DNA of 64,000 bases from an uncultured bacterium. Its GTDB lineage: Bacteria > JAUVQV01 > CAWCAY01. Location of the stretch: assembly GCA_963793725.1 (NCBI GenBank), contig CAWCAY010000003.1, forward strand, positions 778,496-842,495, in the 5' to 3' direction. How positions within the stretch are numbered: position 1 is the first letter of the stretch; each line of letters begins with the position of its first letter. The position numbers and the translations under genes are program-made. Positions 16,790-59,395 of the stretch are shown piece by piece. The notes under the pieces were generated by a model, which was not told the origin of the DNA, did not search any database, and saw nothing but the letters and a program-made list of their open reading frames with translations.

Positions 16790-16830
16790 AGTGTGCGCCG
16801 CAGGCTGGCGCCGGGGCACGGACGGTCGAT

Positions 16831-18333: not shown

Positions 18334-18341
18334 GCCGGGCG

Positions 18342-24866: not shown

Positions 24867-25018
24867 CAGACGCCTCCCCGGAAGCAACGCACACTTCTCG
24901 ATGAATACTCGTGGCCTGACATCGCCTAGTATGGACAAGTCGTCTCGAAAGTCAAGACGACGTCTTGAGACGACTCCCTCGCTGCGAACTTCCGCCAACC
25001 AGTAGAACCCGTCGGCCG

Positions 25019-36512: not shown

Positions 36513-36744
36513 GCCGCAACAGCAGGCGAGGTGATACCGGGCGAATGGCCCGGGTGACGCCTCCGGGGGACCCCCACGTGACGCGCAGCCAGTTGGCGAG
36601 CACCACGTGGGGGTGGGAGGCGGCAGGACCCGGCCCGACGTTGCGGAAACATTCCCACGCCAAATCGCAGGTCTGTAACCTTTCGGCAAAATCCGTCTCT
36701 ATGGAGGTGTGAGGAGATTCCGAACATTCCTGGAGGAGGATGAC

Positions 36745-43788: not shown

Positions 43789-43966
43789 AGAGGATAATAA
43801 TACCTCAGACCGTCTCTTGCGAAGACAATGGTGATTGGGCCGAAAGATGCCCCAGGTCCTGATGAGGAAATAGCCAAGACCCCAAGACCGGAAACGACAC
43901 AGCTTTCTCTAGGTTATCTGTGGTATGGTTGCTCATCATGTCAACGCCGTAACGGGGAGGTGAACC

Positions 43967-44170
43967 TTGAAGCGTTTGCTGGCCGCCGTGGTTCTTCTCT
44001 TGGTCGGGTTGGTCTTTGCCACTCCTGCACAAGCCTATCTCGATCCGGGGACGGGAAGCATGATTTTTCAGGCCGTCATCGGGCTCATCCTGGGAATACT
44101 GTTCACGGCGAAAATGTGGTGGGGCCGTCTGAAGAGTTTCATGTCGGGGAAGAAGAAGGATGACCGCTGA
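43967..44170 (+). CDS. Small exported/membrane protein with an AYLDPGTGS motif
   Basis: 67-aa ORF with a TTG start preceded by ggggagg. The signal peptide is MKRLLAAVVLLLVGLVFATPAQA, followed by YLDPGTGSMIFQAVIGLILGILF and a basic tail. Confidence 0.45.
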   Translation: MKRLLAAVVLLLVGLVFATPAQAYLDPGTGSMIFQAVIGLILGILFTAKMWWGRLKSFMSGKKKDDR

Positions 44171-45566
44171 TTCTGCGGGCGCTCGTCTCCCAGCATCCTT
44201 TCGGGACCCATGCGGTTTCGTCTTCGTCCGGGGCGGCGAACTCTTCCGCCAGGTGAACGCGGGCTACAAGGAGCAGGACCGACCACCTTCGGAATTCCGG
44301 CCTGTATGCCGCGCTGGTCTCGTCGGGATTGCTCGTTCCCCACAGCGAAGTCGACTCCTCGGGGGCGACCTCCGGAGCGTACTGGTCATTAGGCCCGAGC
44401 GCATCCCCTTCATCTCTTACCCCTACGAATGGAGCTTCAGCCAATTGCGGGACGCCGCACTGTCCACCCTGCGGATACAGCGGATGGCCCTGGACCACGG
44501 CATGGTCCTCAAGGATGCCAGCGCCTTCAACATCCAGTTCCTGAACGCGGAGCCTGTCCTGATCGACACTCTCTCGTTCGACACCTACCGAGAGGGTGAG
44601 CCATGGGTGGCCTACCGGCAATTCTGCCAGCACTTCCTTGCGCCGCTGGCACTGATGAGCCACGTGGACGTCCGCCTTGGCCAGTTGTCGAAGGTCTTCA
44701 TCGATGGGCCGCCGCTGGACATGGCCGCCGGGCTTCTGCCGCTTCGGGCGCGCATGCGGCCCTCCCTTCTCATCCATCTCGTTGCTCATGCGAGGAGTCA
44801 GGCCCGCTACGCCAACAGCCACGGACTGGAGGAGGGTCGCGCCGCGCTGAGAGGCCACCGGAAGCTGGGCGTCGCCGGCATGCACGGCATGATCGACAGC
44901 CTCGAGTCGGCTGTTTCTGGGCTCCATTGGCGACCGGTCGGCACGGAGTGGGGCGATTACTACAACGACACCAACTACTCTTCGGTGGCCATGGAGGAAA
45001 AGAAGCAGTTGGTGTACCAGTACTTGCGACGATCGGCCGCGCGGACCGTCTGGGATGTTGGCGCCAACACCGGCGTCTTCAGTCGCCTTGCCAGCGAAAT
45101 GGGGATGCATACCGTCTCCTTCGACATCGACCCGGCGGCGGTCGAGAAGAACTATCTGGAGTGCCGGGCCACCTCGAGAAAGAACCTCCTGCCGCTGATC
45201 CAGGACCTGACCAACCCGAGCCCTTCCCTAGGCTGGCGGAATAGGGAGCGAGATGCCTTCCTCGAGCGCGGGCCGGTCGACGCCGTCCTAGCCCTCGCCC
45301 TGGTCCACCACCTGGCCATCTCCAACAACGTGCCGCTGGCCGACATCGCCGACCTCTTCGCCGCGGTGACAGCCAATCTGGTCATCGAGTTCGTCCCCAA
45401 GAGTGATTCCCAGGTCCGCAGGCTGCTGGCATCCAGGGAGGATGTCTTTCAAGACTACACCCAGCCTGGCTTTGAGCAGGCCTTCGCGAGGGTTTTCTCC
45501 ATCGAGGAGGCCCGTCGGGTCGCCGACAGCAGTCGGATGCTTTACTGCATGCAGCGGAGGTGGTGA
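44160..45566 (+). CDS. SAM-dependent methyltransferase with N-terminal extension (NoeA-like architecture); internal +1/-1 frame excursion at about 44270-44392
   Basis: 468-aa ORF. FRDPCGFVF, ERIPFISYPYEWSFSQL and KDASAFNIQF are present. The methyltransferase core is VWDVGANTGVFSRLASEMG..VSFDID..VLALALVHHL. Between 44275 and 44390 the +1 frame reads TDHLRNSGLYAALVSSGLLVPHSEVD, which looks native, while the ORF frame does not. Confidence 0.7.
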   Translation: MTADSAGARLPASFRDPCGFVFVRGGELFRQVNAGYKEQDRPPSEFRPVCRAGLVGIARSPQRSRLLGGDLRSVLVIRPERIPFISYPYEWSFSQLRDAALSTLRIQRMALDHGMVLKDASAFNIQFLNAEPVLIDTLSFDTYREGEPWVAYRQFCQHFLAPLALMSHVDVRLGQLSKVFIDGPPLDMAAGLLPLRARMRPSLLIHLVAHARSQARYANSHGLEEGRAALRGHRKLGVAGMHGMIDSLESAVSGLHWRPVGTEWGDYYNDTNYSSVAMEEKKQLVYQYLRRSAARTVWDVGANTGVFSRLASEMGMHTVSFDIDPAAVEKNYLECRATSRKNLLPLIQDLTNPSPSLGWRNRERDAFLERGPVDAVLALALVHHLAISNNVPLADIADLFAAVTANLVIEFVPKSDSQVRRLLASREDVFQDYTQPGFEQAFARVFSIEEARRVADSSRMLYCMQRRW

Positions 45567-45600
45567 CGAATCGAGAAGGCAGTGGCGAGGTGTCCTCTAG

Positions 45601-45766
45601 CCAGGCTCAAAAATCCCCTCCGCTGGCGGCGTAGCCGACCCTGGCGACGAAGATCGCCCATTAGCCGCACCCCCCCGGCCAGTCGGCGATGAAGAAGTAG
45701 CGCGACAGCAGGATCTCGTAGGCGATGGACGCCGGCGGCACCGGAAAGATCGGGTCGGAGCACACA
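45601..45766 (-). pseudogene. Copy B of the direct repeat: a decayed 5' fragment of a spermidine-synthase-like gene
   Basis: The minus-strand translation is ..PASIAYEILLSRYFFIADWPGGCG followed by a stop. The intact copy reads LASIAYEILLSRYFAIAGWSEYGYW. The fragment has no start codon and ends in a premature stop. Confidence 0.6.
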
Positions 45767-45819
45767 ACCCAAAGTTATGCGGCACCAGGCTTCTCTGGAC
45801 ATCCCCAAGAATGCTTGCA

Positions 45820-45828
45820 TGCTATAAT
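45820..45828 (+). promoter_or_regulatory. Extended -10 promoter candidate (TGcTATAAT) for the sugar-pathway operon
   Basis: tgc+tataat at 45820-45828 is a perfect TATAAT with an upstream TG. It lies about 130 nt before the aminotransferase start. The 10-bp palindrome ctcgcgcgag follows downstream. Confidence 0.35.
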
Positions 45829-45960
45829 CACCCGAATGAGTTGGCTCGCGCGAGTCGGATTCTGAGAATCACCAGAGAAATTGGCGGACCGAGATGAGAG
45901 TTGACAGAGGATCAAGCATTGAACGTCCAGATTCGCTCGCTTGGCGAAGCAGATGAGAAT

Positions 45961-47079
45961 ATGCGAATCTTCATGAATGATTTCGCTGCCCAATGGCGCC
46001 ACCTTGGCCCTCGGATTCACGAAGTTGTTGAAAGGGTTGGCGCCAGTGGTTGGTATATCCTTGGCGGAGAGGTAGCAAGCTTCGAACAGGAACTCGCACG
46101 ACGGTGGGGTGTGCGGGCGGTCGTGGGGTGCGCCAGCGGGCTCGACGCGATCGAGATAGGACTCAGGATCTTTGGAGTTGGCCCTGGCGACGAGGTCCTG
46201 ACCACACCCCTCAGCGCTTTTGCCACCACTTTGGCTGTGTTGCGGGTCGGGGCGACACCGGTCTTTGTCGACACTGACGCCAATGGGCTAATTGATCTGG
46301 AAGGGGCTGAAGGTGCCATGCGTGCATCACAGCGCATCCGCTGTCTCATTCCGGTACACCTTTATGGAATCCCCGTTGACCTGGAGCGTCTTGACGATCT
46401 CAGAAGATCCTTCGGTGTGCATGTGCTGGAGGACTGTGCCCAAGCGATCGGTGCGTCCTGGAACGGCAGGCCGGTCGGTACGGCAGGGGCCCTCTCCGCA
46501 GTGAGTTTCTATCCCACAAAGAATCTTGGCTGCATGGGAGACGGCGGGGCGGTTCTCACCCTATCTCCTCCATTGGCAGAAAAGGCAAGAATGATCAGGG
46601 ATTACGGTCAGTCAGCAAAATATCTCCATGAGGAAGTGGGCTTGAACAGTCGTCTTGATGAGCTTCATGCAGCCATCCTCCACCGGGTTTTCCTGCCCGA
46701 ACTGGATCACTGGACGGCGCGGCGAAGAGAAATTGCGCAGGCTTATCTGTCGGGGATTGTCAACCCTCGAGTTACCCTTCCAGATATCCCGCAAGCTGCT
46801 GTCCCTAGTTGGCATCTCTTCCCCCTCATTGTTCGAGAGAATCGAGATGCACTTGCGAGACATCTCGCCGATCTGGGTATAGCCACGGGAATTCACTACC
46901 CGGAGATCATCCCGAATCAGAATGTATTCAACAAGCCCAATGCGCCGCCCCACAGGATTTCCGGAACGTTGGATCGGTCAAGAAATATCTCTCGACACGA
47001 GTTGTCGTTACCCATCCATCCGTACCTTTCCGATGAAGACGTAAAGGACATCGTCGATGGCATCAACATCTGGTCCTGA
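45961..47079 (+). CDS. DegT/DnrJ/EryC1/StrS-family PLP-dependent sugar aminotransferase (FdtB/QdtB-like)
   Basis: Taken from ORF 45901..47079, with the start at MRIFMNDF (45961). Blocks are SGWYILGGEVASFEQELA, CASGLDAIEIGL, IPVHLYG, SFYPTKNLGCMGDGGAV (the catalytic Lys region) and NSRLDELHAAIL. Confidence 0.9.
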   Translation: MRIFMNDFAAQWRHLGPRIHEVVERVGASGWYILGGEVASFEQELARRWGVRAVVGCASGLDAIEIGLRIFGVGPGDEVLTTPLSAFATTLAVLRVGATPVFVDTDANGLIDLEGAEGAMRASQRIRCLIPVHLYGIPVDLERLDDLRRSFGVHVLEDCAQAIGASWNGRPVGTAGALSAVSFYPTKNLGCMGDGGAVLTLSPPLAEKARMIRDYGQSAKYLHEEVGLNSRLDELHAAILHRVFLPELDHWTARRREIAQAYLSGIVNPRVTLPDIPQAAVPSWHLFPLIVRENRDALARHLADLGIATGIHYPEIIPNQNVFNKPNAPPHRISGTLDRSRNISRHELSLPIHPYLSDEDVKDIVDGINIWS

Positions 47080-48022
47080 ATACAGCCTCATCATCCCCGT
47101 CTATCGGAATGAGGACTCTCTCCCAGAGCTTCTGCAAGCCTGTGAAGAGCTTAACCGTTCTCTCAGAGGCAGCCTCGAGGTCGTCTTTGTTGTTGACGGC
47201 AGCCCTGACCGATCCTACGACTTCTTGAATCGTTCTCTTCCTGAGAGCAGTCTTATTTGGCAAATCATCCTGCTCTCCAGAAATTTCGGGTCCTTTTCGG
47301 CCATCCGAGCTGGATTGGAGATCGCCGAAGGGCGGTTCATGGCTATCATGGCGGCTGACCTTCAAGAGCCGCCCAGTCTCATACTCCAATTCTTCACGAT
47401 TCTGGGAGAAGGTTCGGTTGATGTGGTCATCGGCACCAGAACAGGCAGGGCAGATCCCCGATTTTCTTGTTTCTGCTCAGGAATATACTGGTGGTTGTAT
47501 CGTCGATTTGTTCTTCCGGAGATGCCATCCGGCGGGGTTGATATTTTCGGGTGCAACGAAGCGTTTAGGAATGCCTTGCTTCCCCTCAGAGAATCCCATT
47601 CCTCTTTGATTGGACTAGTGTTTTGGATCGGCTTCCGAAGGCAATTCGTTGAATACAAGCGACTTCCAAGAAGACATGGCCGCAGCGCCTGGACATTGAA
47701 CCGCAAGTTCGCCTACTTGACGGATAGCATCTTCACCTTCACTGATTTTCCCATCCGAATCTTGAGCATCTTTGGCTCAATCGGTCTCTTGGCTTCCGCC
47801 ATCCTTGTCGTTACCGTGCTCGTGGCCAAGGCAAGCGGTCTGATCAAGCTTCCCGGGTATACGGCAACGATCATTACCATTACGTTCTTTGCCGCACTGA
47901 ACTCTCTTGGGCTGGGTGTCATCGGTTCATATGTCTGGAGAACCTTTGAGAATACCAAGTGCCGCCCGGACTCCATTATCCTCCACAAAAGGAAGAGTGA
48001 GAAGAAGCCTAGCGAAGATTGA
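47057..48022 (+). CDS. GT2-family polyprenyl-phosphate glycosyltransferase (GtrB/ArnC/CsbB-like) with two C-terminal TM helices
   Basis: 321-aa ORF. Blocks are YSLIIPVYRNEDSLPELL, FVVDGSPDRS, MAADLQEPP and GGVDIFGC. The C-terminal helices are ILSIFGSIGLLASAILVVTVLV and TIITITFFAALNSLGLGVIGSYV. Confidence 0.9.
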   Translation: MASTSGPEYSLIIPVYRNEDSLPELLQACEELNRSLRGSLEVVFVVDGSPDRSYDFLNRSLPESSLIWQIILLSRNFGSFSAIRAGLEIAEGRFMAIMAADLQEPPSLILQFFTILGEGSVDVVIGTRTGRADPRFSCFCSGIYWWLYRRFVLPEMPSGGVDIFGCNEAFRNALLPLRESHSSLIGLVFWIGFRRQFVEYKRLPRRHGRSAWTLNRKFAYLTDSIFTFTDFPIRILSIFGSIGLLASAILVVTVLVAKASGLIKLPGYTATIITITFFAALNSLGLGVIGSYVWRTFENTKCRPDSIILHKRKSEKKPSED

Positions 48023-48046
48023 TGCACGACTATCTCCGGTTCCGGC

Positions 48047-48169
48047 TCATTTCCGACCGAAGGCTTTGGTCAAGAAGTCACGTTCCACCGTCAACTGTCC
48101 GATTTTGGCGTGCAGCTCCTTGACCCTTATAGCGCCACCTTTCTTGGCGGCGTCGGTGCGTGGACTGCC
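48047..48169 (-). mobile_element. Remnant of the 3' end of an IS3-family OrfA (leucine-zipper region)
   Basis: The minus-strand translation is ..AAKKGGAIRVKELHAKIGQLTVERDFLTKAFGRK followed by a stop (tca 48047-48049). This matches the conserved ELHAKIGQLTVENDFL-type end of IS3/IS911-like OrfA. No start or HTH part is present. Confidence 0.5.
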
Positions 48170-48358
48170 CAATCGAATTGTGATGGACAATGGCACTAGC
48201 GGCAGATTGCCGAGGAGTGGCGGGTAGCATATACTATGCAGAAGAGAACTCTTCTGCCTAATCTGAGTCCGCGCAAGTTTGTAAGACTGGACGAGGAGTA
48301 GTTCCCAGCTCAGTTTTTGAGCGACACCACAAACCGGGGCAGGTTTCAGGTTCTAGGC

Positions 48359-50371
48359 ATGTGTGGAGTCTTCGGACTGATCGCCAACGCGCCAGCGCAG
48401 TTGCCAGCGGCAACGCTGCAGGCTTTGGCACGCCGTCTGTTCAAGCAATCGGAGACACGTGGTAAGGATGCGGCGGGGGTCGTCGCCGTCAACGAAGCGG
48501 AAATTCTGATTTACAAGGAAGCACGGCGCGCCAGCATGATGCTCAAGAGCAGGCCCTTCGCCGAACTGCTGGCTGATGCAGGTCGGTATTATCAGGATGG
48601 GCAGGCCTTCGTTATCGCGGGTCATACCCGTATGGTCACCAACGGCTCGGAGGGGAATGAGGGGAACAATCAGCCGGTGATCAAGGGTGACTTGGTCCTA
48701 TTACATAACGGCATCATAGTCAATGATCTCGCCCTCTGGCGGCAACACCCGGAATTGAGCCGCACATATGAGGTGGATACCGAGGTATTCGCTGCCTTGG
48801 TTGGGTCGGCAATAGCGGCCGGCGAGTCACTGGATGCCGCCATGCGGAAAGCCTTTGGCGAAACCAGAGGAGCCAACACCATCGCTGCTATTCATGCTGC
48901 TTGTGAATCGATGGTGCTAGGTTCAACCAATGGCTCTCTGTATTTCTTCACCGCACCTGTTCTCGGCGTGAGTCTCTTTGCCTCGGAGGAATTTATCCTC
49001 CGCCAAGTTCTGGAGGCGCTGGCAATGAAGTTGCCAAGCGATGTGCCTCCGATCATTCAGGTCAATCCGTATACCTTGCTGGCCCTCTCGCTTCGCAATG
49101 GCGGCGCACGACTGTTGTCGGTTGGCGATGAGTTGGCTGCGCCGTCGAACACGATCGTCGTCAGGCCTCCGCGGCAGATTCGCCAACTATACGCGGAACG
49201 GCCGGTGGCCATGCGCCGGTCACCGGCGGTGAACCTGCCTGTCAGTGAGATCGAACGACACATGCTGTTCGACCAGAAAGCGATTGCTGCCTTGCGGCGC
49301 TGCAGTCGGTGCCTGCTACCCGAAACCTTTCCGTTCATCGAATACGATGCCGCCGGGGTTTGCCAGTTTTGCCGCCACCACCGGCCGACGCCTTTGCGCG
49401 GCGCGGCGGCGCTGCAGAAACTGGCCGATCTGGTGCGCCGCGCGGACGGCAAGCCCGACTGTCTGGTGCCGATTAGCGGTGGCCGCGACAGTTCATATGG
49501 GCTGCACTATGTCAAGAAGGAGTTGGGCCTCAATCCGGTTGCCTACACATATGACTGGGGTTTCGTTACCGATCTGGCACGCCGAAATATCTCGCGCATG
49601 TGCGGCGAATTGAACGTCGAGCACGTTTTGGTCGCTGCGGACATCCGGCAGAAACGCGAAAACGTGCGCAAGAACGTCTGTGCATGGCTGGCCAAGCCGA
49701 ACTTGAGCATGATTCCCCTGTTTATGGCCGGCGACAAGGCCTACTTCTACTACGCCAGCATGGTCAAGCAGCAAATGAACCTCGGACCTATCCTCTTTTG
49801 CATGAACTGGTTGGAGAAGACCGGCTTCAAGACCGGTTTTGCCGGGGTAAACGATACCGCCAGCCATGAGAAGACCTATGGTCTAACTAGGCTCAATCAA
49901 CTCAGGCTATTCGCCAATTATGGGCTCAACTTCCTGACTAATCCGCGCTATATCAACAGCAGCATCCCCGACACTCTGTTCGGCTTCCTCTCTTACTACC
50001 TGCAAGGCAAGGACTACTATTCGATCTTTGACTTTCTTGCTTGGGATCAGGCCAAGATTGAACGATGCATCATGGATGGCTACGACTGGGAGACTTCGCC
50101 GGACACAACATCCACTTGGCGCATCGGCGACGGCACTGCACCTTTCTACAACTACATCTACCTGACTGTCGCTGGCTTCAGCGAACATGACACCTTCCGC
50201 AGCAACCAGATTCGCGAAGGCATGCTCGACAGGGAAACAGCTCTGCGCGCCATCGAGGCAGAAAATGCCCCGCGCGCAGAGTCGTTCAAGTGGTACTGCG
50301 ACACAATTGGGATTGATGCCGTGGAGACACTACAAGTGATCAATAGAATTCCTAGGCGGTACCCGAGTTAG
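48359..50371 (+). CDS. Fusion of a class II (Ntn) glutamine amidotransferase domain with an N-acetyl-sugar amidotransferase (WbuX/WbpG/PseA-like PP-loop enzyme)
   Basis: Taken from ORF 48317..50371. The start is placed at ATG 48359, so that the protein begins MCGVFGL with the nucleophile Cys2. The GATase blocks are GKDAAGVV, HTRMVTNG, NNQPV and LLHNGII. The C-terminal half begins with the zinc ribbon RCSRCLLPETFPFIEYDAAGVCQFC and carries the PP-loop VPISGGRDSS. Confidence 0.8.
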   Translation: MCGVFGLIANAPAQLPAATLQALARRLFKQSETRGKDAAGVVAVNEAEILIYKEARRASMMLKSRPFAELLADAGRYYQDGQAFVIAGHTRMVTNGSEGNEGNNQPVIKGDLVLLHNGIIVNDLALWRQHPELSRTYEVDTEVFAALVGSAIAAGESLDAAMRKAFGETRGANTIAAIHAACESMVLGSTNGSLYFFTAPVLGVSLFASEEFILRQVLEALAMKLPSDVPPIIQVNPYTLLALSLRNGGARLLSVGDELAAPSNTIVVRPPRQIRQLYAERPVAMRRSPAVNLPVSEIERHMLFDQKAIAALRRCSRCLLPETFPFIEYDAAGVCQFCRHHRPTPLRGAAALQKLADLVRRADGKPDCLVPISGGRDSSYGLHYVKKELGLNPVAYTYDWGFVTDLARRNISRMCGELNVEHVLVAADIRQKRENVRKNVCAWLAKPNLSMIPLFMAGDKAYFYYASMVKQQMNLGPILFCMNWLEKTGFKTGFAGVNDTASHEKTYGLTRLNQLRLFANYGLNFLTNPRYINSSIPDTLFGFLSYYLQGKDYYSIFDFLAWDQAKIERCIMDGYDWETSPDTTSTWRIGDGTAPFYNYIYLTVAGFSEHDTFRSNQIREGMLDRETALRAIEAENAPRAESFKWYCDTIGIDAVETLQVINRIPRRYPS

Positions 50372-50386
50372 TCAGTCGGCTTCCGC

Positions 50387-50779
50387 ATGTTCACACTCTT
50401 GTCGGATAGCCTCCGCAAGCACTTGGTGCCAATCAAGTACTTGCTTGGAAGTGTTCTTGTCTACACATTCATATTGTCGGCCGTTTACATCTTGGTTGAC
50501 TTGATTGGAGTGGATGAGGTCCCCGCCTATTTGACGGTGTATTTGACCGCCTACATACTTGAGTACACGATAACTCTTGTACTTGTTTTCAATGAAAGGC
50601 ATCGGTGGGGAAAAGTGTTGAAGTACATCGTGTATCTTGCAGCTTTCCTGGGGCTGAGCACAATGCTGTTCAAGCTGCAAATCTCACTCGGCATTCACTA
50701 TCTGATAGCCACCATGGCGATCGCGATACTGCTGATGCCGGTGCGCTATGTTATCAATAGGTACTGGGTCTACCGTTAA
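50387..50779 (+). CDS. GtrA-like small polytopic membrane protein
   Basis: 130-aa ORF with four hydrophobic segments. YLLGSVLVYTFILSAVYILVDLIG and the C-terminal VRYVINRYWVY match the typical GtrA-family ending. Confidence 0.7.
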   Translation: MFTLLSDSLRKHLVPIKYLLGSVLVYTFILSAVYILVDLIGVDEVPAYLTVYLTAYILEYTITLVLVFNERHRWGKVLKYIVYLAAFLGLSTMLFKLQISLGIHYLIATMAIAILLMPVRYVINRYWVYR

Positions 50780-52791
50780 TGAATAGGTCAACTGCAAACC
50801 GCTTGGAAGAAGACGTCATGCATGTTCTCATGTTGACGTTGTCCCTATTTGCGCTGTGGACCGCGGCGCTCCAGTTAAGCACATTTACTGGAGTCTCTTG
50901 GACGGCTTTGAACCGGGCGATAGGCTGGTTGTTCTTGCCGGCGTTTGTACTGACATACCTGTATACCAGTCGGTTGGCGAAGTACTATGCAGATCATCTG
51001 CCAGACCGATTGGATGGGAAGAATCCACTCGAAGTCCGATACTTGTGGGCGACGTTTCTCGTCTTTCTGGTTTCCTGCCTTGTGTTATCAGGGTTTTCAG
51101 GGCGATACGCATTGTTGATGCTGTGCCTTGTGGCGATGATCGTGTCTTCCTGTCGTATGCCGAAAGCAAGAATCGGTGTGTCTGCACAAACACAACGGGC
51201 TCAACCAGTACCGCCGGCTATAGCATACGTCTGCCTTATCGGAATTGCGGGTCTAACGATGCTTCTTGTACTTAGCGTCAATCGGCCAGATTTCGATGAT
51301 GCCGAGTATATTCAGTTTGCTCTACAGACGCTGCAACATCCCGAAAGGGCGCCAAACACCTTTGATGCGTCGCTAGGCATTGTCTTGGAGCAATTCCGCT
51401 TTGCACCCTATCGCATCACATCATACGAGACATGCGTTGCGCTGATCAGCCAATGGACTGGTTTGAACGTAATGGATGTCTACTACCTGCTTGTTCCTGC
51501 CATATCAGCGGGTCTGTCCATTCTGGTTGCCTTTGTGTTCATACGTTGGTTTCTGCCTTCTGGCTGGAGTCTGCTGGCCGTATGCTTCTTCTTGTTGATT
51601 TCATTGGCATGGGGGGAGACTCATTTTGCCTATGGAAATCGCATGTACGTCCGCTTGTTTCAAGGGAAGGGATTGTTGGTTGCGATTACCACTCCTATCA
51701 CAGTGATAGTGGCCCTGTTGTGGATGAGGAAACAGAACATTCGTGTGTGGATGGGTATTCTCATTATGCAAGTAGTTGCTGTCGGCGTATCTTCTTCTGG
51801 ATTGGTCATCACTATATTGTCGACAACGGTTGGTTTGCTCGCAGGATTGATGGCACAGCCAAGTTGGAGGAATCTGCGGATTGCGGTAATTGGCGCAACT
51901 TCGCTCATTTACCCTATTGCATTGGGGCTATGGATTAAATTCGCGAGTAGTGCTTCTGGAAAGGTTGAGGGAATTGGGAGCTATCTGCCTGTAGACGCAT
52001 CACTTGGAGGTTCCTCGCGCGAGGCCCTGGTATTGGCCATCATGGCGGCTATCGTATTGCATGGGTTCGGAACAAAGGACTTATGGCTTCGAGCAAGCAG
52101 CGATGGCATAGCTGAAGTATCTAAGAGAACTTTCTTATGGTTGATTGTTGCTGTTATCATCCTGGTCTTTAACCCGGTCCTGATCAACTACCTGACTGTG
52201 GTTACGTCCAAGAATATGAACTGGCGTCTTGCCTGGGCTGCTCCTCTACCGCTGATTCTGGCAACTTGTGTGGTCTATCTGCTCTATGATGCACTTGAGA
52301 ACATGAAGGGAAACACGCGAACGGTCGCATTACTCTTCCCCATCTGCTGGATTGTTGCGTTCATTACTGTTAATCCGTGGACTCTGGCAAGAGGAAATCA
52401 GGTTCAATGGGGATGGCTTGATCACAAAGTACCTCCTGAATACTATCAAGCAGTTGAACTGGCACGGGATATAAGGCGACAGGCAATAGGAGGACATGAA
52501 ATCACTGTATTGGTTGAGCCGAGATTGGGAACGTGGCTGACGGTTGTCGCCCCCGATTTCAAGCTTGTTATGCCAGGTCAAGGATACTTGCCAACCTTGG
52601 AGACTATTATGGATAAGAAAGATTTTGAGCAGCGAAGCCGACTTGTAAACAGCATAGACCTGATTGCTGCAGGGGATTCTTCAATGAACAAGTTGCTTGA
52701 TTCCTACGAAGTTAATGTAATCGCAGTTAAGAGGCAAACGATAGATCAAGTAACAAGCTACCGCATTCAAATGCGCACAATTGAGAAGTAG
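50779..52791 (+). CDS. Large polytopic membrane protein, GT-C-like glycosyltransferase candidate (unassigned family)
   Basis: 670-aa ORF. The ATG overlaps the gtrA-like stop (TAATG). RPDFDDAEYIQFAL in the first predicted external loop is a DxD/E-type motif. There are more than 12 TM segments and a C-terminal soluble domain of about 150 aa. Confidence 0.55.
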   Translation: MNRSTANRLEEDVMHVLMLTLSLFALWTAALQLSTFTGVSWTALNRAIGWLFLPAFVLTYLYTSRLAKYYADHLPDRLDGKNPLEVRYLWATFLVFLVSCLVLSGFSGRYALLMLCLVAMIVSSCRMPKARIGVSAQTQRAQPVPPAIAYVCLIGIAGLTMLLVLSVNRPDFDDAEYIQFALQTLQHPERAPNTFDASLGIVLEQFRFAPYRITSYETCVALISQWTGLNVMDVYYLLVPAISAGLSILVAFVFIRWFLPSGWSLLAVCFFLLISLAWGETHFAYGNRMYVRLFQGKGLLVAITTPITVIVALLWMRKQNIRVWMGILIMQVVAVGVSSSGLVITILSTTVGLLAGLMAQPSWRNLRIAVIGATSLIYPIALGLWIKFASSASGKVEGIGSYLPVDASLGGSSREALVLAIMAAIVLHGFGTKDLWLRASSDGIAEVSKRTFLWLIVAVIILVFNPVLINYLTVVTSKNMNWRLAWAAPLPLILATCVVYLLYDALENMKGNTRTVALLFPICWIVAFITVNPWTLARGNQVQWGWLDHKVPPEYYQAVELARDIRRQAIGGHEITVLVEPRLGTWLTVVAPDFKLVMPGQGYLPTLETIMDKKDFEQRSRLVNSIDLIAAGDSSMNKLLDSYEVNVIAVKRQTIDQVTSYRIQMRTIEK

Positions 52792-52810
52792 TCCCCGGAG
52801 AACTCTGCGC

Positions 52811-52930
52811 ATCACTTATGAAGTCCGCCGACCAGACCTGGTTCTGGCCCTGTGGCCCCAACTGGGGTTGTTTCACCCGTTGCGGTCGCCGCCGCCGCTT
52901 GGCACGCCGCTTCTGGTTGAGCCCGGTCCA
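52811..52930 (-). mobile_element. Remnant of IS3-family OrfB (region just before and at the start of the integrase core)
   Basis: The minus-strand translation from ORF 52727..53002 is GLNQKRRAKRRRRPQRVKQPQLGPQGQNQVWSADFISD. This resembles the ..GL.V..K.RKRRR......P.RPNQVWS.DF.. block of IS3/IS407-type transposases. It is truncated on both sides. Confidence 0.5.
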
Positions 52931-53108
52931 TTCTGTGATTGCCATTTGCCAGAATGCTAGTATGCTGTCTTCCGATGAGACGACAGGCAGCCATTCTCCC
53001 AACCCGCCGCTCAGGAAGCATTGCAGATGCGAACCTTCTCGGGCGATAGTGGAATACTAGCCCTTCTTCTTCGAAAGCGATGATGTCCTACTATCCTTCT
53101 TTAGGTCC

Positions 53109-54575
53109 ATGTATCACACACCCAACCTTACATTGAAGCAGATGCTCTCGAGGATCTCGGGCCACATTTCCTCAGCGGTTCATAGACATGTTTCCTTCAT
53201 ATCTGTGTGGGACAAGTACCCTTCTTGTATTCCATTCATATTCTCGCTCGGTTGCATGGTCATCTACTCCGCACTTAATGCTCATGTCGGCTTCAGAGGC
53301 GATGCATATGAAATCTGGAATGTATCTAAACACATTTACCAAGCTGGTCGCGACGCTTCATTTGTCGAATACCGCGGGCCATTCACGTTTGTCCTATACA
53401 ATCTCCTTTTCTCACTGTCAAGAATGCTAGGCATAGGCGAAGTAGTCTTTTTCAGACTCTACAGCTCTTTCCTATTTGCCTTCCTGACAGCCCTTGTATT
53501 TCCCTATCTCCTCTCCTACATTCTTAATCGAAAGATTTGTCCCGGGGAAACAGTGGTCTTCTCTATGACGGTGTTCTACCTGTATCGCGGGTACTTCCTT
53601 CACCCGCAGACCGATGTTCTCGCCTTTGCTTTTCTCCTTGTCTCCATAGATGTTCTCATCTTATACCTGAATTCGCCACAGTGTTCCTGCTTATATTTGA
53701 GTGGTGCCGGAACGTTGCTCGCTTGCAGCATTATGATGAGGTCTACCTATGTATTCTCAGTGCCATTACTTGCGGCTTTCTTTTTCTTGACGCTATTTGC
53801 ACGGCAATTTAGGGTATCTCAGGTGTGGCGGTCCCTCTCATGCTTTCTGCTTCCTTGTGTGCTGCTTGTCAGCGTCAATCTCATCTGTACAAACAATTCC
53901 TCCGTGTACAAGCTTGGATATACATCTCACAATTCCTACGTGCTAAGGCAGGTACTGAAGTGCGGTTTGTTTATCCAAAAGATCGAATGGAATGCCGGGG
54001 ACAATAATTACCCGGGACCGATGATTCTTCCAGAAAGGAGAGGAATTGAGATTCTTCAGCGTGAGGGTTATGAGCCGGTTGCGTCTCCTGAGGGAATCTC
54101 CATCGGGCAGTATCTAGATTTGTGGCGCAAGTATCCTGTCGACTTGTTCTTCATAGTAGCCCAGCGACTATTTTGCGGTTTGGATATTACGTTTAACTCT
54201 GTCTTTGTCATGAACTTCTCAGCTCCTAGGATTTTCTTCTCTCTAGTGAACTACTTCTTGGTGTTTCTTACAATAGTGGTAGCCAGCACTAGATTTCCAA
54301 TCCCGAGCCATCGCAATGGATATGTCTCCATTCTTCTTCTTGCCATGTCGATCCCGGGTCTTGTGGTATCGCTGTTCATAGTAGAGGTGCGATACTACAT
54401 CTCGATTACCATGACTTGCATAGCCATGGGAGTCTTCTCTTTTCAAGAAGGCATGAGGATCATCAGGGACAACCGGTTATACGTGTACTGTGTTCTATTC
54501 ATTGTCTTGTGTTTTCTTAATTCGGTTAGCATCTTCAATTCTGCTGAACGCATCTTTCCACTTACGATATGGTGA
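53109..54575 (+). CDS. Polytopic membrane protein of unknown function (candidate GT-C glycosyltransferase or polymerase)
   Basis: 488-aa ORF in one of the lowest-GC stretches of the window. There are about 11 hydrophobic segments, and GDAYEIW follows the first helix. No confident family call. Confidence 0.45.
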   Translation: MYHTPNLTLKQMLSRISGHISSAVHRHVSFISVWDKYPSCIPFIFSLGCMVIYSALNAHVGFRGDAYEIWNVSKHIYQAGRDASFVEYRGPFTFVLYNLLFSLSRMLGIGEVVFFRLYSSFLFAFLTALVFPYLLSYILNRKICPGETVVFSMTVFYLYRGYFLHPQTDVLAFAFLLVSIDVLILYLNSPQCSCLYLSGAGTLLACSIMMRSTYVFSVPLLAAFFFLTLFARQFRVSQVWRSLSCFLLPCVLLVSVNLICTNNSSVYKLGYTSHNSYVLRQVLKCGLFIQKIEWNAGDNNYPGPMILPERRGIEILQREGYEPVASPEGISIGQYLDLWRKYPVDLFFIVAQRLFCGLDITFNSVFVMNFSAPRIFFSLVNYFLVFLTIVVASTRFPIPSHRNGYVSILLLAMSIPGLVVSLFIVEVRYYISITMTCIAMGVFSFQEGMRIIRDNRLYVYCVLFIVLCFLNSVSIFNSAERIFPLTIW

Positions 54576-54870
54576 CTGAAAAGTGGCCCCCATGTGTTGT
54601 ACAGCCAGGCGCCCCGAATAAGGTGAAATCCATGTGGTTCTCAGGCCGACAGATGGCCTTCCAAGGTATCCCATTGTCCGGCCATCGAATATTGCCCTTG
54701 ATCTCCGCCTTGACATGCAATTCATCATGGTCATATAATTCGGAGAGATTGCGCTTAGGAGCTGCCGGGCGCTTCCGCCGCCAGGGAGTGGATGAAAGGC
54801 TTATGAATTCAAGTACAGGGAGCAACTGCAGTATCAATGAACATTTCCCAGACTGACCGCTCGGGAGGTT

Positions 54871-55822
54871 GTGGTGGACATTTCTGAGGTTTTCATTCAT
54901 CCACAAGCGATTTGCGAGAGTTCGTCGATAGGGGCAGGAACAAGAGTCTGGGCCTTTGCACACATCTTGCCAACTGCCGTTATCGGATCCAACTGTAACA
55001 TATGCGACCATACATACATCGAAAGTGACGTCATTATCGGCGACAACGTGACGATCAAGTGCGGTGTCCAAATATGGGATGGGATTCGGATCGAAGACAA
55101 TGTTTTTGTCGGCCCGAATGTGACCTTCACAAACGATAAGTATCCACGGAGCAAAGTCTATCCTGAACAGTTTCTTACGACGATCGTACGCAAAGGGGCG
55201 TCAATCGGCGCTAACGCCACCATCCTTCCAGGCATCAGCATTGGTGCGAATGCCATGATTGGCGCCGGCTCCGTGGTCACCAAGTCAGTACCCTGAAAAT
55301 GCGCTTGTTGTCGGAAATCCAGCGCGTATGGTAGGTTATGTCGGCACGAAGAAATGGGAGAGTGCGATATCCGTAGAACCATCGCCTTCTCCTACAATTG
55401 AATCCAGTCAAGTGAGGGGAGTAACTCTGCATCGTCTTTCGCTCGTGGAAGACATGAGAGGCAACCTCATTGTGGCGGAGTTCGAACGACAAGTCCCTTT
55501 CTTGCCCAAGCGCTACTTCATGGTCTTTAGCGTCCCGTCATCGGAAGTCCGCGGTGAGCATGCGCATCTCAGTTGCCATCAGTTCCTCATCTGCATCAAC
55601 GGATTCTGTGCGGTAGTCGCGGATGACGGCAAGAATCGGCAGGAATTCCATTTAGATGGTCTATTGACGGGCCTTTATCTTCCGCCGATGACCTGGGCGG
55701 TTCAGTATAAATACTCCCCCGACGCCATTCTGCTTGTCTTCGCGTCCGATTATTACGACCCCAACGACTACATCCGAAGCTACGATCGATTTCTTTCATT
55801 GACCAATGGCGCCCAGAAATAG
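54871..55822 (+). CDS. WxcM-like bifunctional protein: left-handed beta-helix N-acetyltransferase (FdtC/QdtC-like) plus FdtA/QdtA-like 3,4-ketoisomerase cupin. It is split by a 1-nt frame disruption at ccc 55291-55293
   Basis: ORF 54871..55296 has GTG preceded by gggagg and hexapeptide repeats: [72 protein letters not shown] 55259..55822 continues [16 protein letters not shown], which is the end of the LbH domain. The isomerase block follows: [31 protein letters not shown]. Confidence 0.8.
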
Positions 55823-58175
55823 CCGTCTACGAGACTTCCTCTCAGCCTCGAAACCCACCTGCACTAGAATCCTGGCAAGCGATCTTTTCGCGCTCTGTTG
55901 TGTCCTCTTCCCCGTACTCTTGGCGCTCTTCTACCACTTCATATTCGGCAAGGGACTGTACATGTATGGAGACATAGGCGCCGATACTGCTTTCTCCTAT
56001 TGGCCCAATCTGGTTCACATCAACCGGCGAGTTCATGCAGGAGATTTCTCGTTTTGGTCACCGCAGATCGGGTTGGGAGGAGACGTTCTTTCCGCTTCAT
56101 ATTTTCTTCTCGATCCATTCAACTGGATTCTCTTCGTACTCCCCGCAGCCATGCTTGCCACGATGTTGGTTTGGGTCACGATTATCAAGCTCATCGGATG
56201 TGCAGTTGTTGGATATTTCCTTGCCAAGCGATTTGAATGTGGCCGATTCCCGAGCATCCTTTGCGCTTTATCCCTCGCTCTTAATGGCTACACGCTAGTC
56301 AATGGCCAGCACTACTTCTTTCTAACTGGCTACTTCCTTACGTTGCTCCTTCTTCTGGCGTTTGAGACTTGCCTTCAGGATTCCAGGATGCTGCCATTGA
56401 CTGTAGTTGTAGCCGTCTTTGTGATTTCCTCTTTCTACTTCTTCTATATGGCTGTAATCTACTTGTTGGTGTATTTCACAGTTCGCATTCTGTTCTCAGT
56501 ACTTCCTTTGTCGAGAATTGCCAAGCAGATTCCAATTCTCCTGTTCGGCGGGCTCTCGGGACTCGGCCTCTCTTCATTTATTTTGATTCCGATTCTTAGA
56601 GTCTTCAGCACTAGCCCTCGAATCGGCATGATTGACTGGATGGGAAGACTGGAGCCGATGAACGCTCAATTGCTTTGGAGTTGCATATTGCGCTTGATCT
56701 CGCCGAGCTCCTTGGGGATCGGTTCAAAATACTCCGGGGCACTCAACTACTATGAAGCGCCCACTCTATTTGTTGCATTGCCTATTGCAGTCTTCGCCCT
56801 CATAGCGATAGCGCGAGCGGTTCGCTTGCGGCCAATAGTCACCTTGACGGTCTTGTCCGTCCTGATGTCCTTGCTCTATTGCCAGTTCTTCTCGATCGCC
56901 ATGAACGCATTTCAGTATCGCATGTATAGGTGGACTCACGTTCTTGCCGTTTCATTCTCGTTGCTTGCTGCTGCGGGCCTTAGAGATCTTGAAGCAACCT
57001 GTCTTTCAAAGTCGGAGAAGCGGCGTTATACAACGTTATCTCTCATGATCGCATTGGGCTTGGCCAGTATTGCCATCTTCTCAAAGCATCTCCCCGTACG
57101 CATTCTTGAATTTCGAGAACTCTGGGCAGGCAGTGCGATTTGTGTTCTTATCGCTCTAGTGTTTTGGATTCGCTCCGATGTGTTCCGATACACGCTGATC
57201 TTGGCGTTGTTCTTGGTTAGCGTTGTTCCCGGCCTCTATAAGGCAACCAACAGAAAGGCATTCCTGCTGAAGAACAACCCCCGTTTTTCGCTCAACTCTG
57301 ACGATCCGGCCAAGTACGTGAAGGCAAACTTCTCCGGTTACTACCGTATACACTCGGGCGAGTTTGCCTCTTACACCGAATCCCTCGAGTTAGACTATCT
57401 CGGGCTTCCCCTATACTCCTCATTGTCGGAACCCGGATACGTTGCATTCACAAATAAGTTTGACCTCGGATTTACCCGCGGATGGATCAATCTCATTCCA
57501 GGCCCTCCAGAGAGCCGCCCTACGCTCTTGTGGCTCCTTGGCGTTCGATATTTCTATCGAACAACGGATTCTCCTCCACCCGAGAATTTCTCCCTCATTG
57601 AGGACAGGAAGGGTTCCCGCATTTTCGTCAACTCCTGGCCAACATCTCTCGCGTATGCGTATGGCGAGATACGGAGCCAAGAAGAGTTCATGAAATTGTA
57701 CAAACGTCACGGGGACAATGCGTTCCTCATGGCAGCGTCCGTCGATGACACGGAGTTTCTCGCGCGGCGAGAATCAGCTACTCAGAACACCGCCGTCCCG
57801 GAGGAGGCGGCACCGGCTAAGAGGGAGATTCCGCCGCCCATCGAGGTTCTCCAATACAGGGATGGCCGCATGATTCTCAGGTATGACAATTCCTCCAAGT
57901 CCAAGGTGTTTGGACTTGTATCGATTCCCTACAGCAAAGGATGGAGCGCCACATTGAACGGCAAGGTGCGTCCAATTTGCAGAGCGGACTTTGGACTGGT
58001 CGGGTTCGCATTGGAACCCGGCATCAATGATGTGGTACTAACATATCGACCCGTTGGCCTCAAGACCGGGATCCGTCTGACGCTCTTCACGATCCTTGTG
58101 ATTGTGGTAATCCATTTCCCGAAAACACAAAGGACGAGTCGCCCGGATCATCGTCCACCATCCGTGTTGCGGTGA
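55806..58175 (+). CDS. YfhO-like large polytopic membrane protein (GT-C glycosyltransferase candidate)
   Basis: 789-aa ORF. The N-terminal block reads [43 protein letters not shown]. There are more than 12 TM segments, a C-terminal soluble domain and a final TM helix, which matches YfhO architecture. Confidence 0.6.
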
Positions 58176-58426
58176 TCGAACGGTCAACCTCTATCTTCCA
58201 ACACATGTGCGAGCAGGTGACGGAGATCGTCAAGTCTCGTATCCTTCAACTGTCCTCTGGGGAGCATTACACGTTATCGTTGCAGTTGTGGTATCTTATC
58301 TTATGACTTCATCTTGGGGCGCCTTCCGTTGCTGCGGGGCGCCGAGCCGCTGAATAGGACGATGAGGAGATCAGGCGCCGGAGCGCTCTATCCGACTGAC
58401 GGCAGGCATGGAGGAAGAGTTCCATC

Positions 58427-59395
58427 GTGAACAGTGCTGTGTCTCGTACGCGCATGCTCATTCTCGTGGTGATGCTTTCTTCGATGGTCCTGATCCCGGG
58501 CGTTCCCCGGCCGGCGCGGGGCGGCGAGGCGGTGAAGGGCACCGTCAGGATCTCGGGCGCCTGGGCGCTCTACCCGATGATGGTCCGCTGGGGGGAGGAG
58601 TTCCGCAAGGTCCATCCGGGCGTCAGGATCGACATCTCCGCGGGAGGTGCGGGCAAGGGCGTGGCCGATGCCCTGGCCGGGTTCGTCGATCTGGGCATGG
58701 TGTCGAGGGACCTGAGGCCGGAGGAGACTGCCAGGGGAGCCGTGTTCGTGCCGGTCGTCAAGGACGCCGTCTTCCCCACCATGAGCGCCCGGAATCCCCT
58801 GGCCGACAAGATCATGAAGCGGGGGGTAAGGAAGGAAGCCTTCGTGAAGCTGTGGGTGGGCGGCGAGCCCCTGACGTGGGGGGAGCTGGCCCAGGCGGGA
58901 ACGGGCGGCAAGGTCCAGGTCTACACCCGGTCCGATGCCTGCGGGGCGGCCGAGACGTGGGCGCTGTACCTCGGGAAGAAGCAGGAGGACCTCAAGGGCG
59001 TGGGCGTCTATGGTGACCCGGGCGTTTCCGAGGCCGTCGCCAAGGATGCCAACGGAATCGGCTTCAACAACCTCAACTTCGCCTATGACCTGAAGACGGG
59101 GCTTCCCGTCGCCGGCCTCGCGGTCGTCCCGATCGACCTGAACGGGGATGGGAACGTCGATCAGACCGAGAATCTGTCGACCAAGGAGCGGGCGATCCGG
59201 GCCGTGGCTTCCGGGGCCTATCCCTCGCCGCCGGCCCGGGATCTCTTCCTGGTCGCCAAGGGTTCCTTTCGGGGCCTCACGGCCACGTTCGTCCAGTGGA
59301 TTCTGACCGACGGCCAGAAGTACGTCGACGAGGCGGGCTACCTGAAGCTGAGCGGGGAAAAGCTGAAGAATGCCTTCGGGCAGATGAAACCGTAA
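58427..59395 (+). CDS. pstS: Phosphate ABC transporter substrate-binding protein (PstS family)
   Basis: 322-aa ORF. GTG 58427 lies about 11 nt after ggagga. A signal peptide is present. Blocks are RISGAWALYPMM..DISAGGAGKGVADALAGFVDLGMVSRDL and SGAYPSPPARDLF. Confidence 0.8.
   Translation: MNSAVSRTRMLILVVMLSSMVLIPGVPRPARGGEAVKGTVRISGAWALYPMMVRWGEEFRKVHPGVRIDISAGGAGKGVADALAGFVDLGMVSRDLRPEETARGAVFVPVVKDAVFPTMSARNPLADKIMKRGVRKEAFVKLWVGGEPLTWGELAQAGTGGKVQVYTRSDACGAAETWALYLGKKQEDLKGVGVYGDPGVSEAVAKDANGIGFNNLNFAYDLKTGLPVAGLAVVPIDLNGDGNVDQTENLSTKERAIRAVASGAYPSPPARDLFLVAKGSFRGLTATFVQWILTDGQKYVDEAGYLKLSGEKLKNAFGQMKP

Follow-up and report, generated by a model that had tools for sequence, protein, structure and literature searches.

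A compositionally foreign island in an uncultured bacterium with a putative, extended three-component system for extracytoplasmic glycosylation

INTRODUCTION

Three-component glycosylation systems acting on ABC-transporter-type O-polysaccharides have been described (PMC11127046). We report a set of genes of related makeup, extended by genes for sugar synthesis, in a stretch of 64,000 nucleotides (the window) from an uncultured bacterium (assembly GCA_963793725.1, contig CAWCAY010000003.1, positions 778,496 to 842,495 of the forward strand; all coordinates below are those of the window). These genes occupy a segment of low guanine-plus-cytosine (GC) content at ~45.77 to 58.3 kb (~12.5 kb), which is probably an old, horizontally acquired, mosaic island encoding an extended version of the three-component (Gtr/Arn-like) systems, one that would add a 3-acetamido- or 3-acetamidino-3,6-dideoxyhexose to its targets outside the cytoplasm.

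A second precedent is wxc region 3 of Xanthomonas campestris pv. campestris, which we take to contain wxcM, the source of the name “WxcM-like” borne by Pfam family PF05523 and PDB entry 4mzu, and whose wxcN product is presumably GtrA-like. Within that region, a mutation in either wxcK (encoding an aminotransferase) or wxcN (encoding a small membrane protein) abolishes the O-antigen side branch of N-acetylfucosamine (FucNAc) (PMC4878081). Judged by description rather than by direct sequence comparison, the island shares with it a DegT-type aminotransferase, a WxcM-type bifunctional enzyme, and a small membrane protein, but wxc region 3 has no amidotransferase, DUF6077, YfhO, or three glycosyltransferases of the GT-C class, and it sits inside a gammaproteobacterial O-antigen cluster. 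The original prediction for this locus, a reading of the window from its letters alone, had not recognized the gene combination as a described system. This holds in part: an Fdt-plus-GtrA precedent exists in Xanthomonas and three-component systems are known, whereas a trio of island genes (an amidotransferase fusion, GtrA, and DUF6077) is uncharacterized.

RESULTS

Composition, boundaries, and age of the island

Measured in 1-kb windows, GC is 0.467 to 0.581 over 46 to 58 kb, against 0.65 to 0.75 for the bulk of the window outside the island, and it returns to 0.62 to 0.65 from 58 kb on. In tetranucleotide usage, the sequence from 45 to 58 kb lies at an L1 distance of 0.41 to 0.80 from the flanks, compared with 0.235 ± 0.053 for flank windows, an excess of 3 to 10 standard deviations (SD), and GC at third codon positions (GC3) is 0.52 to 0.69 in island genes versus 0.81 to 0.97 in clearly native genes. 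The compositional anomaly is far beyond chance; the sharp drop that had been read from the letters is borne out by sliding GC, tetranucleotides, and codon usage, the very measurements that the original prediction had proposed as a check, and every gene of the interval lies, as it stated, on the plus strand.

The position of the drop needs correction. It had been placed right after 43788, at a spermidine-synthase-like gene, but the strong break lies at ~45.77 kb, about 2 kb further right, and a native module of two genes and a degraded gene copy come before it. The 43.8- to 45.6-kb sub-block, previously called intermediate, is indeed so: GC is 0.625 and 0.606 at 44 to 46 kb, and GC3 is near native (0.80 for a methyltransferase of 468 amino acids [aa] and 0.71 for a small protein). 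The degraded copy (45584 to 45764, minus strand), which was recognized from direct repeats D1/D2/D13, an alignment, and a translation lacking an open reading frame (ORF), is a direct copy of 176 nucleotides (nt) from the 5′ end of the spermidine-synthase-like gene (43612 to 43787), corresponding to its first ~60 codons. It directly follows the methyltransferase stop codon, is 83 to 85% identical to its source, with indels, has lost the start codon, and marks the left junction of the island. On the right, GC recovers within the spacer (58176 to 58426) ahead of pstS (58427 to 59395), which is where the recovery had been expected; no repeat, tRNA, or integrase is seen at this junction, no integrase, tRNA, or flanking or terminal direct repeats surround the island, and Rfam and tRNA scans of the whole window are empty.

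Five related contigs (GCA_040960625.1, GCA_040961635.1, GCA_040961015.1, GCA_040960995.1, and run SRR25508694) have the island genes at the corresponding position, in identical order and together with the gene-fragment scar, with nucleotide identities to the window of 91 to 92% in the flank and 91 to 95% in the island; a 4.9-kb Logan contig is 99.98% identical to the window. The island therefore predates the split of these lineages. In one relative (L083), flank GC is 0.686 versus 0.51 for the island; synonymous divergence (dS) from that relative is 0.09 to 0.31 in the island and 0.17 to 0.34 in the flank, and the ratio of nonsynonymous to synonymous divergence (dN/dS) is 0.09 to 0.28 for the island genes, indicating purifying selection. 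The acquisition is old, and the island has been kept by selection and not ameliorated.

Comparison with close relatives had been proposed as a way to see whether they lack the island; it is present in five of five, no empty site was found among them, and dS is flank-like, so that it is composition alone that makes the case for a horizontal origin. The proposal of a horizontally acquired cassette accordingly stands on its foreign composition, along with at least one scar of an IS3-family insertion sequence (IS), while its start was misplaced and its presence in all five relatives leaves no empty site for comparison. Searches for more distant relatives returned, as best matches, only 61 to 65% identity for pstS among 185,579 species genomes and 56 to 57% for the methyltransferase among JGI metagenomes, and neither collection yielded such a relative.

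Candidate genes for sugar synthesis

Two genes of the island match enzymes that make deoxythymidine diphosphate (dTDP)-linked 3-acetamido-3,6-dideoxyhexoses. The gene at 45961 to 47079, which could also start further upstream at 45901 or 45919, encodes a DegT/DnrJ/EryC1 aminotransferase (PF01041, 2e-89), as had been proposed, predicted to use pyridoxal phosphate and to be of the C3 (DesV/QdtB) type; its dN/dS is 0.28. Its best PDB matches are 2oga (2.4e-79), which we take to be the C3 aminotransferase DesV, and QdtB (3frk, 6.6e-71), and the C4 enzymes ArnB and PseC rank lower, although the C3 assignment is one of similarity only, from which regiochemistry cannot be read.

The second gene (54871 to 55822) encodes an FdtD/WxcM-like protein with a putative N-acetyltransferase domain of left-handed β-helix type (Hexapep, 1.3e-26) and an FdtA-type cupin, the putative 3,4-ketoisomerase (PF05523, 4.3e-51). 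Both domains of the predicted WxcM-like acetyltransferase/isomerase are thus present, but the gene is split in the window into two ORFs (54871 to 55296 and 55259 to 55822) by one extra C (CC to CCC) at 55291 to 55293. It is intact, at 315 aa, in relatives L082 to L084, and the intact homologue matches 4mzu, a 312-aa WxcM-like protein that is presumably the bifunctional acetyltransferase/ketoisomerase FdtD, at 2.1e-130; the N-terminal half matches both 7s43 and 4mzu. The FdtA domain matches FdtA (2pa7, 4e-31) better than QdtA (4e-21), which weakly favors the galacto form of the sugar.

Lipid-carrier glycosyltransferase, amidotransferase fusion, and GtrA

The gene at 47057 to 48022, the first 23 nt of which overlap the 3′ end of the DegT gene, encodes a family 2 glycosyltransferase (GT2; PF00535, 3.6e-18), predicted from the letters to be GtrB-like and confirmed here as a GtrB/ArnC/PgfS-like protein. 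Its best NCBIfam matches, PgfS (1.1e-42) and ArnC (1.1e-32), are both full length, and among PDB entries it matches sll0501 (5ekp, 1.6e-41), presumably a GtrB, and ArnC (7e-28). The alignments to PgfS, ArnC, and sll0501 cover the GT2 catalytic domain and the C-terminal membrane helices alike, marking the protein as a probable polyprenyl-phosphate sugar synthase.

The gene at 48359 to 50371 (670 aa) encodes the fusion that had been proposed, that of a class II, N-terminal nucleophile (Ntn) glutamine amidotransferase (residues ~1 to 225; GATase_6, 5.3e-9, 36.6 bits against a cutoff of 27) to a PP-loop N-acetyl-sugar amidotransferase (NASAT; residues ~315 to 670; TIGR03573, 9.4e-34). Its PDB matches are the NASAT structure 8wex and the N-terminal domain of GlmS. 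The PP-loop motif SGGxDS and the tetracysteine CxxC...[GN]xCxxC are NASAT signatures, described with the Legionella structure 8WEX (PMC10607449). In 28 homologues of the fusion, the PP loop SGGRDS (373 to 378), the tetracysteine CSRC...GVCQFC (C315/318/335/338), N117-G118, and D140 are invariant, and Cys2, which follows the start in MCGVFG, is at least 90% conserved. An alternative TTG start at 48317 (684 aa) was rejected in favor of the ATG at 48359 because an Ntn glutaminase needs Cys2. To judge from its profile scores, the NASAT part is a divergent branch. No HisH/HisF-like (WbuY/WbuZ) ammonia-supplying partners are encoded in the island, where the fused Ntn glutaminase stands in their place.

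The GtrA-like protein of the original prediction likewise holds up: the gene at 50387 to 50779 encodes a small membrane protein of the GtrA family (PF04138, 3e-9, 37.5 bits against a cutoff of 26.1), a putative flippase for a lipid-linked sugar.

Three polytopic proteins of predicted GT-C fold

Of the three large membrane proteins, the 789-aa YfhO-like protein (55806 to 58175; PF09586, 7.4e-66, 223.5 bits against a cutoff of 28.5) was correctly named from the letters. Weak matches to PgfM2 (1.3e-26) and PgfM1 are its sole NCBIfam matches, its dN/dS is 0.23, and exact look-ups of it and of protein P0025 returned no record. The other two had been described simply as polytopic, of 670 and 488 aa, and structure prediction gives both a GT-C fold.

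The 670-aa protein (50779 to 52791) belongs to DUF6077 (PF19554, 2.8e-15, 56.4 bits against a cutoff of 27) and carries the invariant motif RSDFDDAEY, with D171, D173, and D174 invariant. A sequence-profile search of the PDB gave no match, leaving the fold search as the informative one: the AlphaFold 2 (AF2) model (predicted local distance difference test [pLDDT], 87.5; predicted template modeling score [pTM], 0.91) retrieves in Foldseek, at high probability, GT-C structures only, with AglB, STT3, AftA, and PglB on top (probability, 1.00). A literature search for DUF6077 found no paper.

The 488-aa protein (53109 to 54575) has no Pfam or NCBIfam match, and ten sampled members of its family likewise lack a Pfam match. 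Eight clusters of the family were found by word search, and a hidden Markov model search raised the number to ~825 representative clusters at 50% identity; the family alignment (A3) shows conserved motifs GDAYEIW (after the first transmembrane helix), GYFLHPQTD, and QKIEWNAGD. The AF2 model (pLDDT, 75; pTM, 0.79) matches the GT-C enzymes STT3, DPY19, PglB, ALG3, and ArnT in Foldseek, and an hhalign comparison of the DUF6077 and 488-aa families showed no relation. DUF6077, the 488-aa family, and YfhO are thus predicted, on structural models and profiles, to be three GT-C enzymes of three different families. In the relatives, the gene is called as a longer, 575-aa protein, a version that we rejected: its N-terminal extension reads antisense through an IS-like spacer, meets a stop codon in the window, and has no equivalent in other homologues.

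In SRR25508694 and GCA_040961015.1, an O-polysaccharide cluster with Wzm/Wzt, of 51% GC, encodes a protein that is 52% identical to the 488-aa protein and is its paralogue or homologue. Since these sources also hold high-GC relatives, the assemblies seem to contain more than one organism, including a mid-GC member with related genes.

Insertion sequence scars and promoter-like sites

The spacers between blocks of island genes hold traces of transposition. At 48040 to 48170 (minus strand), six-frame translation and tblastn reveal the C-terminal remnant of an IS3-family OrfA, ending in VKELHAKIGQLTVERDFLTKAFGRK and a stop codon and 70% identical (E = 1e-6) to annotated IS3 transposases on plasmids. 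At 52811 to 52935 (minus strand), a possible N-terminal remnant of IS3 OrfB (...GQNQVWSADF) matches positions 179 to 226 of profile NF033516 weakly (E = 0.038). These are two of the IS3 remnants that had been noted from the letters; a third, suspected at ~54.6 kb, matches neither NCBIfam profiles nor transposases on plasmids. The IS proteins of one comparison locus (L087) do not convincingly match the remnants in the window.

A perfect sigma-70 consensus (TTGACA, 18 nt, TATAAT; 12 of 12 matches) stands on the plus strand at 54710 to 54739, 130 nt upstream of the WxcM-like start, in the 295-nt spacer ahead of the WxcM-like/YfhO pair. Weaker promoter-like sites occur in the two other IS-scar spacers (48207 to 48235 and 52939 to 52966). 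On the whole, neither promoter-like nor terminator-like sites are more frequent in the island than chance would give.

The same parts in other genomes

The fusion has more than 100 full-length homologues (46 to 95% identity), which their sources name “hypothetical” or glucosamine-6-phosphate synthase (GlmS), and DUF6077 homologues repeatedly lie on the same contigs; named bacteria with homologues include Pseudomonas citronellolis, Acerihabitans arboris, and Rhodoplanes serenus. At all comparison loci that we tabulated (L087 to L090, L094, and L096), the gtrA gene directly follows the fusion gene. The nearest copy of fusion and GtrA outside the relatives (L087/L088; 80% and 67% aa identity) is on a contig that is natively 55% GC, where IS3-type fragments come after the copy. 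Loci L089/L090, L094 (a gammaproteobacterial metagenome-assembled genome [MAG]), and L096 share the order methyltransferase, AglJ/PpgS-like GT2, (a 715- to 725-aa protein), methyltransferase, fusion, GtrA, and DUF6077, in which a polyprenyl-phosphate GT2 precedes the last three genes. By gene order and sequence similarity, the fusion-GtrA-DUF6077 trio appears to be a widely conserved, recurrent, and uncharacterized unit. Locus L089 has, in addition, a DegT and a GT2 gene that overlap each other (39% and 53% identity to those in the window) and wzm/wzt, and homologues of the 488-aa protein adjoin Wzm/Wzt transporters and amino-sugar genes.

Neighboring genes and other features of the window

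The block left of the island (43967 to 45566, plus strand) consists of a small membrane protein (43967 to 44170; signal-like N terminus, YLDPGTGS motif, one transmembrane helix) and the 468-aa methyltransferase, whose N-terminal domain is of no known family. It had been called NoeA-like, for which we find no support, the matches being weak, subthreshold ones to generic methyltransferases. Among 80 metagenome loci with a homologue of this methyltransferase, the small protein is directly upstream in 45 and a sulfatase-family gene directly downstream in 38; a Syntrophorhabdus MAG has the order small protein, methyltransferase, sulfatase, pstS. The three genes seem, from this recurrence, to be a widespread, uncharacterized, and separate conserved module, and the small protein and methyltransferase would therefore be neighbors of the island and not part of its cargo. 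The window carries these two without the sulfatase, and the island and gene-fragment scar occupy the spot expected for that partner.

The duplication at 45584 to 45764 could be a recombination junction, belonging to either the island or the methyltransferase block. In relative L082, the methyltransferase is only 83% identical to that of the window, compared with 92 to 95% in the other relatives.

Frameshifts are found outside the island too. The genes for PIN, PCMT, and the spermidine-synthase-like protein differ by ±1 in C or G runs from both L082 and L083 (near 38630, 40993, and 43066). The coding sequences for a RecQ-like protein and UvrA likewise seem to be broken up into several frames (10.4 to 11.5 kb and 26.6 to 29.9 kb).

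Within the native flank (36490 to 38424), a gene with a twin-arginine translocation signal and a 4Fe-4S domain (36709 to 37779) and a formate-dehydrogenase-gamma-like gene (37769 to 38578) have no counterpart in L082 and L083, where DUF2238 is directly followed by the PIN/FitA pair, an indel polymorphism.

A second low-GC patch (21050 to 26080; GC, 0.57 to 0.585; tetranucleotide distance, 0.40 to 0.42) follows a Mutator-family transposase gene (21050 to 22306, 3.9e-79). It contains genes for a 590-aa protein with a C-terminal UbiA prenyltransferase domain (22282 to 24054) and for a 316-aa protein with no assignment (24048 to 24998, minus strand), and a GT4 glycosyltransferase gene (25019 to 26080) adjoins it; this patch may be another lipid-linked-sugar module. 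Native envelope or glycan genes lie at 13499 to 18417: a B12-binding radical SAM gene (13499 to 15319), a GDSL lipase-like gene (15356 to 16789), and a GT2-methyltransferase fusion (16831 to 18417, minus strand).

DISCUSSION

A putative pathway and the points against it

We propose that the island genes probably act in a single pathway. The FdtA domain would isomerize dTDP-4-keto-6-deoxyglucose (made by RmlA/RmlB encoded elsewhere), the DegT enzyme would aminate the product at C3, and the hexapeptide-repeat domain would N-acetylate it, giving dTDP-3-acetamido-3,6-dideoxygalactose (dTDP-Fuc3NAc) or its gluco counterpart dTDP-Qui3NAc. The GtrB/ArnC-like GT2 would then move the sugar onto undecaprenyl phosphate, and the Ntn-GATase/NASAT fusion, with glutamine and ATP, would convert the N-acetyl group to an acetamidino group, with either the nucleotide sugar or the lipid-linked sugar as its substrate. 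GtrA would flip the lipid-linked sugar across the membrane, where the three unrelated GT-C enzymes (DUF6077, the 488-aa protein, and YfhO) might transfer it, each to an acceptor or position of its own, most likely on an ABC-transporter-type O-polysaccharide or similar surface glycan. The earlier proposal of an unusual 3,6-dideoxyhexose loaded on a lipid carrier thus agrees with the genes, which match dTDP-3-acetamido-3,6-dideoxyhexose synthesis followed by a GT2/GtrA/GT-C route, and the amidino product is one that we infer.

Several findings weigh against this pathway. The NASAT part of the fusion scores below the TIGR03573 cutoff (117.4 versus 203.2 bits), the WxcM-like reading frame is not intact in the window (+1 nt), and it would be unusual for three GT-C enzymes to draw on a single GT2 and a single GtrA. 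By tblastn, rmlA/B/C/D, wzm/wzt, and waaL are absent from the 64-kb window, so neither precursor supply nor acceptor is visible there. The modules are separated by one confirmed and one doubtful IS remnant, and their juxtaposition might be due to chance. Elsewhere, moreover, the trio is accompanied by two methyltransferases and an AglJ/PpgS-like GT2, and not by Fdt genes, implying that its native substrate may be a 2-acetamido hexose.

Alternative explanations

A different account is that of a patchwork of independent modules brought together by IS activity, each having partners encoded elsewhere: an arnB-arnC-like DegT-GT2 pair, the trio acting on a 2-acetamido hexose, a lone O-polysaccharide-associated GT-C enzyme, and the WxcM-like/YfhO pair. 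IS3 scars or long spacers fall exactly between these blocks, GC is unequal between them (0.54 to 0.58 at 46 to 50 kb versus 0.47 to 0.52 at 50 to 58 kb), the trio in L094 and L096 has an AglJ/PpgS-like GT2 of its own and no Fdt genes, and homologues of the 488-aa protein are found without the other island genes. A single polyprenyl-phosphate GT2 and a single GtrA for three GT-C enzymes mean, however, that the modules must share them, and L089 joins the DegT-GT2 pair and the trio in one cluster, while in the five relatives the whole block is conserved under purifying selection. We consider the patchwork unlikely, although it is the most credible of the alternatives.

Protein O-glycosylation of the Streptococcus mutans Pgf type, in which YfhO/PgfM-like GT-C enzymes would modify surface or S-layer proteins and not a polysaccharide, is improbable. 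It accords with PgfS as the best NCBIfam match of the GT2, with PgfM2 and PgfM1 as the sole such matches of the YfhO protein, and with the nearness in fold of DUF6077 to the oligosaccharyltransferases AglB, STT3, and PglB, but scores are well under the equivalog cutoffs (146 versus 500 bits and 93 versus 1,500 bits), homologous modules lie in Wzm/Wzt O-polysaccharide clusters, and no gene for an acceptor protein is evident.

It is equally doubtful that the cassette is decaying in this genome, with the frameshift removing the WxcM-like enzyme so that the sugar is no longer made. The extra C at 55291 to 55293 does split the gene, and three flank genes are frameshifted too; yet all four frameshifts are ±1 changes in C/G homopolymers relative to two relatives, as is typical of long-read consensus errors, and dN/dS is 0.09 to 0.10 on both halves of the WxcM-like gene. 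On this ground, the frameshifts are probably consensus errors on the 1.39-Mb contig, with real, widespread pseudogenization as the alternative.

Least probable is a native region whose low GC reflects local selection (membrane-protein bias or expression tuning), for although all five related contigs have the block at this position with flank-like dS, and no integrase, tRNA, or flanking direct repeats are present, the soluble enzymes of the block (DegT, fusion, and WxcM-like) have GC3 values (0.57 to 0.69) as low as those of the island membrane proteins, the native membrane proteins of the flanks keep 0.81 to 0.92, tetranucleotide distance reaches 10 SD, and an IS3 scar is present.

Significance and comparison with known systems

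An acquired, extended three-component glycosylation island hence remains the reading that we prefer. It offers a first functional context for DUF6077, as a putative GT-C enzyme encoded alongside GtrA and an N-acetyl-sugar amidotransferase that is fused to a glutaminase; it brings to notice a predicted GT-C family that has no Pfam model (11 members tested) in spite of its ~825 clusters at 50% identity; and it points to a fusion family of more than 100 full-length members labeled hypothetical or GlmS. If an amidino sugar is indeed made, the island would represent a second, Arn-like lipid-carrier route to positive charge on surface glycans, with a bearing on antigenic diversity and cationic-peptide resistance; otherwise, it is an ordinary, well-documented example of an old, unameliorated glycan-decoration island.

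Like the GtrA/GtrB/Gtr* systems of Shigella and Salmonella, the island has a polyprenyl-phosphate GT2, a GtrA, and GT-C enzymes, but its donor would be a dTDP-derived 3-acetamido-3,6-dideoxyhexose, not UDP-glucose, and it includes sugar-synthesis genes, an amidotransferase, and three GT-C families. The combination of GT2, GtrA-family protein, and YfhO GT-C enzyme recalls CsbB/GtcA/YfhO of Bacillus and Listeria (teichoic acid) and PgfS/PgfM1/PgfM2 of Streptococcus mutans; those are Gram-positive, UDP-hexose systems, and the island proteins score well under their equivalog cutoffs.

With the NASAT enzymes WbuX, WbpG, and PseA, the fusion shares the PP-loop SGGxDS, the zinc tetracysteine, and the match to 8wex. 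In the canonical case, as in a Sphingomonas cluster (PMC11340318), the partners of the NASAT enzyme are HisH/HisF-like proteins encoded separately. The ammonia source in the island would instead be a fused class II (Ntn, GlmS/PurF-like) glutaminase, and the gene is linked to GtrA and GT-C genes, unlike WbuX with WbuY/WbuZ, which belongs to cytoplasmic repeat-unit assembly. A further likeness is to mycobacterial PpgS (Rv3631)/Rv3779 and polyprenyl-phosphate-GalNAc: the GT2 beside the trio in L087, L089, L094, and L096 matches PpgS and AglJ, implying a lipid-linked N-acetyl hexosamine donor for the GT-C enzyme. The GT2 of the window, however, is GtrB/ArnC-like and not PpgS-like, and the mycobacterial system has no amidotransferase.

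The Arn system (ArnB, ArnC, ArnA, ArnD, ArnT, and ArnE/F), which places 4-amino-4-deoxy-L-arabinose (L-Ara4N) on lipid A, resembles the island in its overlapping arnB-arnC-like pair, in full-length ArnC matches, and in an amino sugar that is N-acylated before transfer to undecaprenyl phosphate, with a candidate N-acyl-editing enzyme followed by a flippase and GT-C. This arrangement, an aminotransferase-GT2 pair and N-acyl editor upstream of flippase and GT-C, suggests that the amidotransferase might unmask a positive charge on the lipid-linked sugar. We raise, as a speculation that is on balance unlikely to be right, that the trio and a polyprenyl-phosphate GT2 form an unrecognized Arn-like charge-modification pathway, in which a lipid-linked acetamido sugar would become a cationic acetamidinium on the cytoplasmic face and then be flipped, after which a new GT-C family would place it on lipopolysaccharide or a different surface polymer; in this island, the trio would have been rewired to work with a 3-acetamido-3,6-dideoxyhexose and with two additional GT-C enzymes. 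The amidotransferase step would then be a functional counterpart of ArnD deformylation. The island nevertheless departs from Arn in its editor, which would be an ATP- and glutamine-dependent amidotransferase and not a deformylase, in its sugar and nucleotide, and in its GT-C enzymes, which lie outside the ArnT/PMT_2 family.

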